Positions 54,099 to 54,765 of a stretch of 64,000 bases of DNA are shown here, in pieces. Source of the DNA: Escherichia phage NHEP29; sequence record PQ511150.1. The stretch is one strand, 5' to 3'. Both the position numbers and the translations under genes were made by a program. The notes below the pieces were generated by a model. The model searched no databases. It saw only the letters and a list, made by a program, of their open reading frames with translations, and was not told the origin of the DNA. Numbering within the stretch: the first letter of the stretch is position 1; each line of letters opens with the position of its first letter.

Positions 54099-54301
54099 GT
54101 TACCTTTAAGCAGTATTCTTCTACATGCTGTTTACGACCTTTCTTATCAATAAAGGTATATTCAACGAATGTTCCAATGTAGTCTTTATCTACATCATGT
54201 AGACTATTAATTGGACATTTAGTACGACAAATGCGTTCCCATTGACGAATAATTACTGTCTTATTCTTTGGGTCATATGGATGTGGATAGTGTATATTCA
54301 T
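54089..54301 (-). CDS. hypothetical protein (70 aa)
   Basis: Start at Met6 with ATGA overlap. Confidence 0.5.
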   Translation of the reverse strand: MNIHYPHPYDPKNKTVIIRQWERICRTKCPINSLHDVDKDYIGTFVEYTFIDKKGRKQHVEEYCLKVTWL

Positions 54302-54765
54302 AACAATGGTTCCCAATCAACAATCACAATTTCTAGTTTAGTGGAATATGTATCTAAAATCTCTTCGATGACATCCCAGTTTCCACCACCGATACCTGCA
54401 CCAATTCTTGGCATATAAATTACAGGCTTTGTTATCTTATTCTTTCCGAATTTATTTAATTCTATTATACAATTCATTAAAGCAGAGTACTCAAAATTAG
54501 GTCCCGGCTCAAACTGTGTATAAAGATTAAAGCAATAAGCTTTATGAGTCTTAAAATATTTTTCATAAACTGAATAAGTCCCGAGTTTAGACTCATCTCC
54601 ATATACAGTTTGAAGTTTATCGGCTTCCAGAATTTTTGGATAAGCCTTTGCTAATTGTCCTGCTACACCAGCGCCCATTGTATGAAAACAATTACACCCA
54701 TGAGCAATATTATTACCTTTAGAAAACAGGGCGACAATATCGCCCTTGATATAGTTTTTAATCAC
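54298..54765 (-). CDS. macro-domain-like protein (ADP-ribose binding/hydrolase fold candidate)
   Basis: GNNIAHGCNCFHTMGAGVAGQLA and PRIGAGIGGG resemble macro NAAN...GGGV and G-I-G-x-G motifs; listed start is TTG, probable GTG start at 54765 after GAGGA. Confidence 0.6.
   Translation of the reverse strand: MIKNYIKGDIVALFSKGNNIAHGCNCFHTMGAGVAGQLAKAYPKILEADKLQTVYGDESKLGTYSVYEKYFKTHKAYCFNLYTQFEPGPNFEYSALMNCIIELNKFGKNKITKPVIYMPRIGAGIGGGNWDVIEEILDTYSTKLEIVIVDWEPLL

Follow-up and report, generated by a model that had tools for sequence, protein, structure and literature searches.

The gene tk.4 of Escherichia phage NHEP29 (sequence record PQ511150.1) probably encodes an orphan antitoxin against the DarTG2 defence, which would remove ADP-ribose from thymidine in the single-stranded DNA (ssDNA) of the phage. 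It was studied in a window of 64,000 nucleotides (nt), the whole stretch of phage DNA analysed, to which all coordinates refer. The coding sequence occupies 54298..54765 on the minus strand, comprises 155 codons plus stop and specifies a stand-alone macrodomain; it was delimited from the open reading frame (ORF), the Pfam Macro match, the identity to the RB69 and T4 genes and an AlphaFold2 (AF2) model. The gene is tk.4, orthologous to T4 Tk.4/AdfM. This analysis itself established the gene and its start codon, the fold, the orthology, the residues of the active site and the genomic context, and the genetic requirement against DarTG2 was established by others, for the T4 orthologue only. The gene has been named since the annotation of the T4 genome and is new neither as a type of system nor as a variant. 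An earlier note on this DNA, made from the sequence alone, described a macro-domain-like protein and missed that it is the named and widely annotated tk.4 of the T4 family.

The window derives from an RB69-like (Mosigvirus) T4-type phage, and a 2.1-kb piece around tk.4 is 97.5-98.3% identical to many Escherichia phages of this type. The protein is 96.7% identical to Tk.4 of RB69 (NP_861803). With T4 Tk.4 it shares 129 of 155 residues (83%) in a gap-free alignment (E=3e-103). All three have a length of 155 amino acids (aa), the same start position and the residues H22, N25 and Q84. The vs-tk.4-tk.3 surroundings, in which stop and start codons overlap, are shared as well. The window gene differs from that of T4 by a GTG instead of an ATG start and by Gly127 instead of Lys127, and from that of RB69 by two small ORFs between tk.4 and tk.2, where RB69 has none. 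T4 Tk.4 is closer to the window protein than to some Tequatrovirus alleles (G50-type, 58%). Because it lies nearer to the Mosigvirus-type than to the G50-type allele, tk.4 alleles seem to have been exchanged across genera and not to track phage taxonomy.

Both glycine-rich motifs quoted in the earlier note, GCNCFHTMGAGVAGQLA and PRIGAGIGGGNW, lie within one minus-strand ORF, listed at 54298..54795 with 165 aa from a TTG codon. By comparison with homologous genes, translation almost certainly begins with the GTG codon at 54765, not with the listed TTG at 54795. This codon (54763..54765, minus strand) is part of an 8-nt overlap with the stop codon region of the upstream gene vs (GTGATTAA). The RefSeq annotation of RB69 tk.4 begins at the same GTG, and the corresponding alignment column is ATG in T4, G50, VPA32, Merlin and Cronus. 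An in-frame TAG directly upstream of the tk.4 start in T4 keeps the T4 ORF from reaching further upstream. A Shine-Dalgarno-like AGAGGA, read from the sequence and presumed to serve in initiation, is located 10 nt 5' of the GTG (54776..54781, minus strand), and GAGGA is kept at the same place in RB69, T4 and G50. The longer ORF initiated at TTG was ruled out by the starts of the homologues and by the in-frame stop of T4. The earlier note had already preferred the GTG, with the gene spanning 54298-54765, and all these features agree with that choice.

Profile searches and structure prediction identify the product as a macrodomain. The Pfam Macro profile (PF01661) matches with E=9.8e-7 and 29.2 bits, compared with a gathering cut-off of 22, over positions 2-117 of 118, and PHROG 335 with E=2e-66. 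Homologues were detected by tblastn in 2,796 of 50,697 phage records, and GenBank entries label the gene 'macro domain protein', 'ADP-ribose binding module' or 'phosphatase'. The window protein and its database matches were combined into a family alignment of 116 sequences. When the single sequence was compared with the PDB by phmmer, matches were obtained to BT1257 (1e-10), yeast Poa1p (9e-9), TARG1 (2e-3) and the DarG macrodomains (5e-3). The profile of the 116 relatives matched BT1257 at 2.7e-17, TARG1 at 5e-16, Poa1p at 2.6e-14, SCO6735 at 4.5e-14 and Mycobacterium tuberculosis DarG at 6e-14. An AlphaFold prediction from the single sequence was useless (predicted local distance difference test, pLDDT, 36.7); the model used was therefore the one built with the family alignment, which has a pLDDT of 95.9 and a predicted template modelling (TM) score of 0.91. 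Foldseek searches of the PDB gave 141 matches at E<=0.001. The matches listed consist of macrodomains and designs based on one, with top TM scores of 0.69-0.79. They include TARG1 (3e-10), Poa1p (1e-9, with the highest query-normalised TM, 0.79), DarG (about 1e-7, TM about 0.75), BT1257 and SCO6735 (TM 0.71). As modelled, the window protein has the three-layer alpha/beta/alpha macro fold. GAGVAG at residues 31-36 and GAGIGGG at residues 122-128 are putative ADP-ribose-binding loops, each aligned with its counterpart in TARG1, BT1257 and PhiKZ gp104. The macro-domain-like character that the earlier note had read from its glycine-rich motifs is thus confirmed, and none of the profile or structure searches led to the unrelated fold that it had named as the result that would speak against it.

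The predicted active site was deduced from an alignment of the window protein, T4 Tk.4, family members, TARG1, BT1257 and PhiKZ gp104 (from NC_004629), in which the TARG1 and BT1257 sequences were used as printed by the PDB search. The numbering of N23 and K78 of PhiKZ gp104 in this alignment agrees with the published paper. The first predicted ADP-ribose-binding loop, located with the family alignment, spans residues 22-38 (HGCNCFHTMGAGVAGQL; 54652..54702, minus strand) and holds His22 and Asn25. Asn25 falls in the column of PhiKZ AdfM N23, the position of DarG N22, and is Asn in 115 of the 116 relatives. His22 corresponds to Poa1p H23 and is His in 114. The second glycine-rich loop, predicted to bind the diphosphate, covers residues 119-130 (PRIGAGIGGGNW; 54376..54411, minus strand) and aligns with PRIGCGLDRLQW of TARG1. 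Across the 116 sequences, G33 and A35 are invariant in the first loop, and P119, I121, G122 and G124 in the second. The codon of Gln84 is the CAG at 54514..54516 (minus strand), placed by a profile alignment to TARG1 and a multiple alignment with TARG1 and PhiKZ gp104. This residue, Gln in all 116 sequences, stands in the column of TARG1 K84 and PhiKZ AdfM K78, the position of DarG K80. Both the multiple and the profile alignment put Gly126 where TARG1 has Asp125.

The exchange of the catalytic lysine for glutamine has a precedent in Streptomyces. It has been reported that TARG1 K84, DarG K80 and SCO6735 Gln85 are equivalent positions, and that SCO6735 hydrolyses thymidine-linked ADP-ribose on DNA, probably through an activated water; its variants Q85A and Q85E are inactive (PMC9411070). 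The equivalence of Gln84 with SCO6735 Gln85 was taken from the statement in that paper and from the alignment to TARG1, and not from a direct alignment with SCO6735. In DarG, K80A inactivates the enzyme and N22A is the next most damaging mutation; N22, like its counterpart N23 in PhiKZ AdfM, is the substrate-positioning asparagine, and activity drops when it is mutated. The T4-type active site therefore appears SCO6735-like and lysine-free, which is compatible with hydrolysis of thymidine-linked ADP-ribose, though not by the DarG mechanism.

The role in counter-defence comes from recent genetics in T4. A T4 transposon library was screened by HIDEN-SEQ on a DarTG2 host, and tk.4 was the single significant hit (bioRxiv 10.1101/2025.11.20.689424, November 2025). 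T4 could do without the gene on plain E. coli K-12 in that screen, and its depletion was specific to DarTG2. A clean tk.4 knockout sensitised T4 to DarTG2, and the gene was renamed adfM, for anti-DarT factor Macrodomain (10.1101/2025.11.20.689424). That T4 AdfM hydrolyses DNA-linked ADP-ribose was deduced by the authors of the same preprint from structural similarity to DarG of M. tuberculosis. The suggestion of the earlier note that a phage macrodomain could reverse ADP-ribosylation by a host defence fits these genetics of the T4 orthologue, which is 83% identical.

In the mechanism that we consider probable, tk.4 would be expressed within the regB-vs.1-vs-tk.4 gene run. DarT2 ADP-ribosylates thymidine in TNTC motifs of the phage ssDNA and thereby blocks replication. 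The macrodomain would grip the ADP-ribose in its GAGVAG and GAGIGGG loops and hydrolyse the bond between ribose and thymine, which would restore a replicable template. With Asn25 kept and the catalytic lysine replaced by an invariant Gln84 as in SCO6735, the chemistry would likely be lysine-independent and water-mediated.

The distribution of the family was followed in phages used in DarTG studies. A hidden Markov model (HMM) built from the 116-sequence alignment gives one strong match each in RB69 (2.5e-66) and in the window (1.8e-67). No family member was detected by tblastn or with this HMM in T5, the DarTG2-sensitive control phage in both studies, a correlation that indirectly favours the anti-DarTG2 role. 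According to a review, RB69 is a target of DarTG1, and T5 and SECphi18 are targets of DarTG2. Both the window and RB69 give a second, weak HMM match (about 12 bits, E about 0.005-0.01), which was regarded as noise; in the window it falls at tk.2, as calculated from the frame offset.

Several points weigh against a role as a DNA-directed antitoxin. The DarTG2 evidence comes from the T4 orthologue and not from the window allele, and the hydrolytic activity ascribed to T4-type Tk.4 is deduced from structural similarity to DarG. The window protein lacks the lysine that serves as the catalytic residue in DarG, TARG1 and PhiKZ AdfM. In sequence it is nearer to the phage protein Adpp (38% identity, BLASTP 9e-25) and to Poa1p (phmmer 9e-9) than to DarG (5e-3). 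It also keeps His22, the residue mutated in the deposited H23A structure of Poa1p.

These similarities raise an alternative function, in which the protein would mainly be a phosphatase like Adpp and Poa1p. It would convert ADP-ribose 1''-phosphate (ADPR-1''P), e.g., from the RES-type NAD+ phosphorylase defence aRES, to ADP-ribose (ADPR), and its effect on DarTG2 would be secondary. Adpp from Vibrio phage Gary, found in some phage NARP1 operons, has been described as an ADPR-1''P phosphatase that lets NARP1 overcome aRES, and the conversion of ADPR-1P to ADPR was detected by liquid chromatography-mass spectrometry (January 2026 preprint). A protein of Vibrio phage Achelous has 38% identity with the window protein (E=9e-25) and 98.7% with Gary Adpp, and through this relative the processing of ADP-ribose derivatives, also mentioned in the earlier note, is kept as a live rival in this specific form. 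RefSeq labels tk.4 of T4 and of RB69 'phosphatase; contains A1pp phosphatase motif'. In the single-sequence PDB searches Poa1p is placed ahead of DarG, and it also has the highest query-normalised TM; the window protein shares with it the HxCNC motif containing His22. Gln84 is unable to tell a phosphatase from a hydrolase, because it is also conserved in Adpp-like proteins. The Achelous macro protein, encoded in an Adps-macro-Namat operon, scores at least as high as the T4 and window proteins against two DarG HMMs. Two tblastn searches yielded what is essentially one family (2,796 and 2,710 phage records), and sequence similarity alone therefore cannot assign the substrate.

Genomic context, loop structure and phenotype nevertheless make a mainly phosphatase function unlikely. 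Adpp is useful only together with NARP1, and no homologue of the NARP1 proteins Adps (Prs-like) and Namat (Nampt-like) was found in the window or in the RB69 genome (tblastn at E<=1, and annotation). Poa1p His23 and Ser30 are the residues mutated in PDB entries 6LFS and 6LFT; the Ser30 position, which aligns with Thr29 of the window protein, is variable and poorly kept (Thr in 73 of the 116 sequences). The sole known phenotype of the T4 orthologue is DarTG2-specific. Furthermore, in the macro proteins adjacent to NARP1 (Vibrio Achelous, Acinetobacter Aci01-1 and Pseudomonas C11; n=3) the loop after the glutamine is 6-7 residues longer, whereas the five T4-like proteins aligned all have a short loop of the QFEPGPN type. 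The long loop after YxQ was observed in the NARP1-adjacent members at L003:3501-3977, L004:3501-3974 and L021:4001-4480. It is also present in two Vequintavirinae proteins that have no NARP1 genes within 4 kb. In this small sample, with three NARP1-adjacent proteins, loop length after YxQ may be a marker of subfamily or specificity. DarG W83, in the region after the catalytic residue, was suggested by its authors to stack on thymine, and for this reason the region after the glutamine could plausibly set specificity.

A further possibility, held tentatively and as rather doubtful, combines the two activities. T4-type Tk.4/AdfM proteins would not be DarG mimics, but a short-loop branch of the large Adpp/Poa1p-like 'phosphatase' family, which occurs in about 5% of phage records, with a lysine-independent site formed by Gln84, Asn25 and His22. 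Either they would be bifunctional, acting as thymidine-ADP-ribose glycohydrolase and ADPR-1''P phosphatase, or specificity would be switched between DNA-linked and free ADP-ribose by how long the loop after the glutamine is. If true, phages would have redirected a single widespread macrodomain scaffold towards DarTG2 and aRES, defences that are unrelated to each other.

The missing lysine also bears on whether any catalysis is involved. The protein could block DarT2 by binding the toxin or its ADP-ribosylated DNA product, an explanation that we regard as quite improbable. Besides the loss of the canonical catalytic lysine, it can draw on the catalytically dead SCO6735 Q85A, which inhibits DarT in vitro more than DarG K80A or TARG1 K84A (PMC9411070), whereas the K80A variant of the Thermus aquaticus DarG macrodomain by itself gave no inhibition of DarT. 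Against it, the C-terminal DarT-binding domain of DarG is absent from the window protein. The NCBIfam DarG model NF048014 matches at positions 4-146 of 338 only, with 31.8 bits compared with a curated cut-off of 250, and the DarG HMM of PADLOC (PDLC02990) matches at positions 4-145 of 329 only (E=9.7e-9). Conservation of the putative active-site residues H22, N25 and Q84 in 114, 115 and 116 of 116 diverse sequences argues for catalysis and against binding specific to the toxin.

Other ADP-ribose substrates were considered as well. Tk.4 might erase or tune the ADP-ribosylation of host proteins or RNA by the phage enzymes Alt, ModA and ModB, or degrade immune signals based on ADP-ribose, for example in Thoeris. 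As a class, macrodomains have a wide range of ADP-ribose conjugates as substrates (PMC9503650); the window carries modA, modB and nudE, and RB69 has alt. However, no genetic or biochemical link was found, and loss of tk.4 from T4 mattered only with DarTG2. CmdTAC, an mRNA ADP-ribosyltransferase, defends robustly against T4 although T4 carries tk.4. Some 47 kb separate tk.4 from modA and modB, and it shares an operon with no transferase. Alt and Mod mainly modify arginine. To our knowledge, arginine is not a substrate of the TARG1/DarG clade, and this was also counted against a link to these enzymes. The idea in the earlier note that the protein reverses the modifications made by the phage's own Mod and Alt transferases found nothing in its favour, and this whole group of functions is highly improbable. 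The survey of the Aravind group (PMC9503650) does not mention Tk.4, and in a Thoeris II preprint and the CmdTAC paper macrodomains come up only in other connections.

The gene order around tk.4 is typical of its relatives. The minus strand carries regB, vs.1, vs, tk.4, three small ORFs and an ORF at the tk position, in an order that matches RB69 and T4. The first gene was recognised by Pfam REGB_T4 (9e-69). The upstream neighbour vs, the valyl-tRNA synthetase modifier (54758..55105, minus strand), matches PHROG 1256 (E=1.8e-35), has the same place in RB69 and T4, and is probably translationally coupled to tk.4. It is preceded by vs.1 (55102..55644, minus strand), an SLT-like transglycosylase (Pfam SLT E=1.5e-4; PHROG 600 E=5e-66). 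Both N-termini look signal-peptide-like when judged by eye. Of the description 'next to secreted proteins' in the earlier note, the adjacency holds, and secretion has this visual impression behind it. The signal-peptide-like N-terminus of vs is found in a protein annotated as modifier of a cytoplasmic valyl-tRNA synthetase. In T4, vs was conditionally important in minimal medium (HIDEN-SEQ preprint, bioRxiv 10.1101/2025.11.20.689424). A promoter scan was uninformative, with fewer sigma-70-like sites than in shuffled sequence.

Downstream of tk.4, at the position of T4 tk.3, lies a DUF7202 gene (54089..54301, minus strand; Pfam DUF7202 E=1.3e-37 over residues 6-75 of the listed TTG ORF). As read from the sequence, its ATG overlaps the stop codon of tk.4 (ATGA). 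The same 4-nt overlap joins tk.4 and tk.3 in T4, and such tight gene packing is common to the window and T4. The three small ORFs belong to DUF7202, Phage_zn_bind and DUF7438 and are followed by the ORF that stands where RB69 and T4 have tk, the thymidine kinase gene. The DUF7202 gene and the Phage_zn_bind gene (53886-54098, minus strand) separate tk.4 from tk.2 in the window. In RB69, tk.4 and tk.2 directly abut, and T4 has tk.3 where the DUF7202 gene stands. This difference is a small indel within Mosigvirus-like phages.

Within tk.4, a pattern scan detected a terminator-like RNA hairpin at codons 7-13 (54728..54746, minus strand), about 12 nt past the vs stop codon. It consists of an 8-bp stem and a 3-nt loop, AGGGCGAU-AUU-GUCGCCCU, followed by UUUUC, and has a folding free energy of -13 kcal/mol (z = -2.8). 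RB69, T4 and Tequatrovirus G50 share the hairpin nucleotide for nucleotide, and the more distant VPA32, Merlin and Cronus lack it. As far as the hairpin's 3' end, G50 and T4 have one and the same sequence, but directly beyond it they diverge, which suggests a mosaic (recombination) junction at this point. Because of this divergence, the conservation of the hairpin possibly reflects a recombination junction rather than selection, and the element may not be part of the function of tk.4.

Other genes of ADP-ribose metabolism are scattered over the window. The ADP-ribosyltransferase genes modA (6463-7062) and modB (7129-7707), with 99% identity to RB69, and nudE (60266-60721), a Nudix hydrolase annotated as ADP-ribose-active, are all on the minus strand, and none adjoins tk.4. 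A homologue of RB69 gp61.2/AdfA (12124-12759, minus strand; 98.6% identity) carries Arg164. The native Arg164 allele of RB69 AdfA is reported not to neutralise DarT1, and the escape allele and T4 have His at this position. Judged by its AdfA allele, the phage of the window would probably share the reported DarTG1 sensitivity of RB69 and be resistant to DarTG2 via tk.4; the gene 30.3/adfN lies outside the window.

As a finding, tk.4 matters little, since the gene is named and widely annotated and its function in T4 has been published. Its value here is that it provides an RB69-like phage with a probable counter-defence against DarTG2, where it complements the known DarTG1 weakness of the lineage. 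It also draws attention to the T4-type enzyme, which has no DarG catalytic lysine and is in sequence nearer to ADPR-1''P phosphatases, and to the question of whether its substrate is thymidine-linked ADP-ribose, ADPR-1''P or both.

Among the known systems, the window protein belongs to the TARG1/DarG/SCO6735/Poa1p (ALC1-like) clade of macrodomains. Its presumed substrate, thymidine-linked ADP-ribose on ssDNA, and its antitoxin logic against DarT2 are those of the DarG macrodomains (T. aquaticus and M. tuberculosis; PDB 5M3E, 5M3I) and PhiKZ gp104, with which it shares the macro fold (TM about 0.75) and the conserved Asn (N22/N23). It differs from them by an identity of only about 20% and by Gln84 in place of their K80/K78. 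The window gene has no adjacent darT (its neighbours are vs and the DUF7202 gene) and no C-terminal DarT-binding domain; its 155 aa comprise the macro part only. PhiKZ gp104, also called AdfM, keeps N22 and K80 of DarG as N23 and K78 and removes thymidine-linked ADP-ribose in biochemical assays (Cell Rep 2026, PMC13309987). The name AdfM has thus been given independently to two non-orthologous macrodomains with about 20% identity: T4 Tk.4, with Gln and known from genetics only, and PhiKZ gp104, with Lys and biochemistry. Human TARG1/OARD1 (PDB 4J5R) and Bacteroides BT1257 (2FG1) match best in structure and profile, and their two glycine-rich loops align with those of the window protein, but the catalytic dyad K84/D125 of TARG1 is replaced by Q84/G126. 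Adpp of Vibrio phage Gary (KNV71_gp137) is the closest experimentally characterised relative in sequence, as measured on the 98.7%-identical Achelous copy, and shares the same tblastn-defined family of about 2,700-2,800 records. Adpp and yeast Poa1p (PDB 6LFQ-6LFU), both ADPR-1''P phosphatases, resemble the window protein in HxCNC, His22 and Gln84. The window gene differs from Adpp in lying outside a NARP1 operon, in a lineage (that of RB69) without NARP1, and in its short rather than long loop after the glutamine. The Streptomyces coelicolor protein SCO6735 (PDB 5E3B) is from the same clade and has Gln at the catalytic lysine position, with a profile match of 4.5e-14 and a TM of 0.71, although it is a DNA-damage-inducible bacterial protein of about 21% identity. 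This glutamine is essential in SCO6735, and SCO6735 protects against DarT (PMC9411070).

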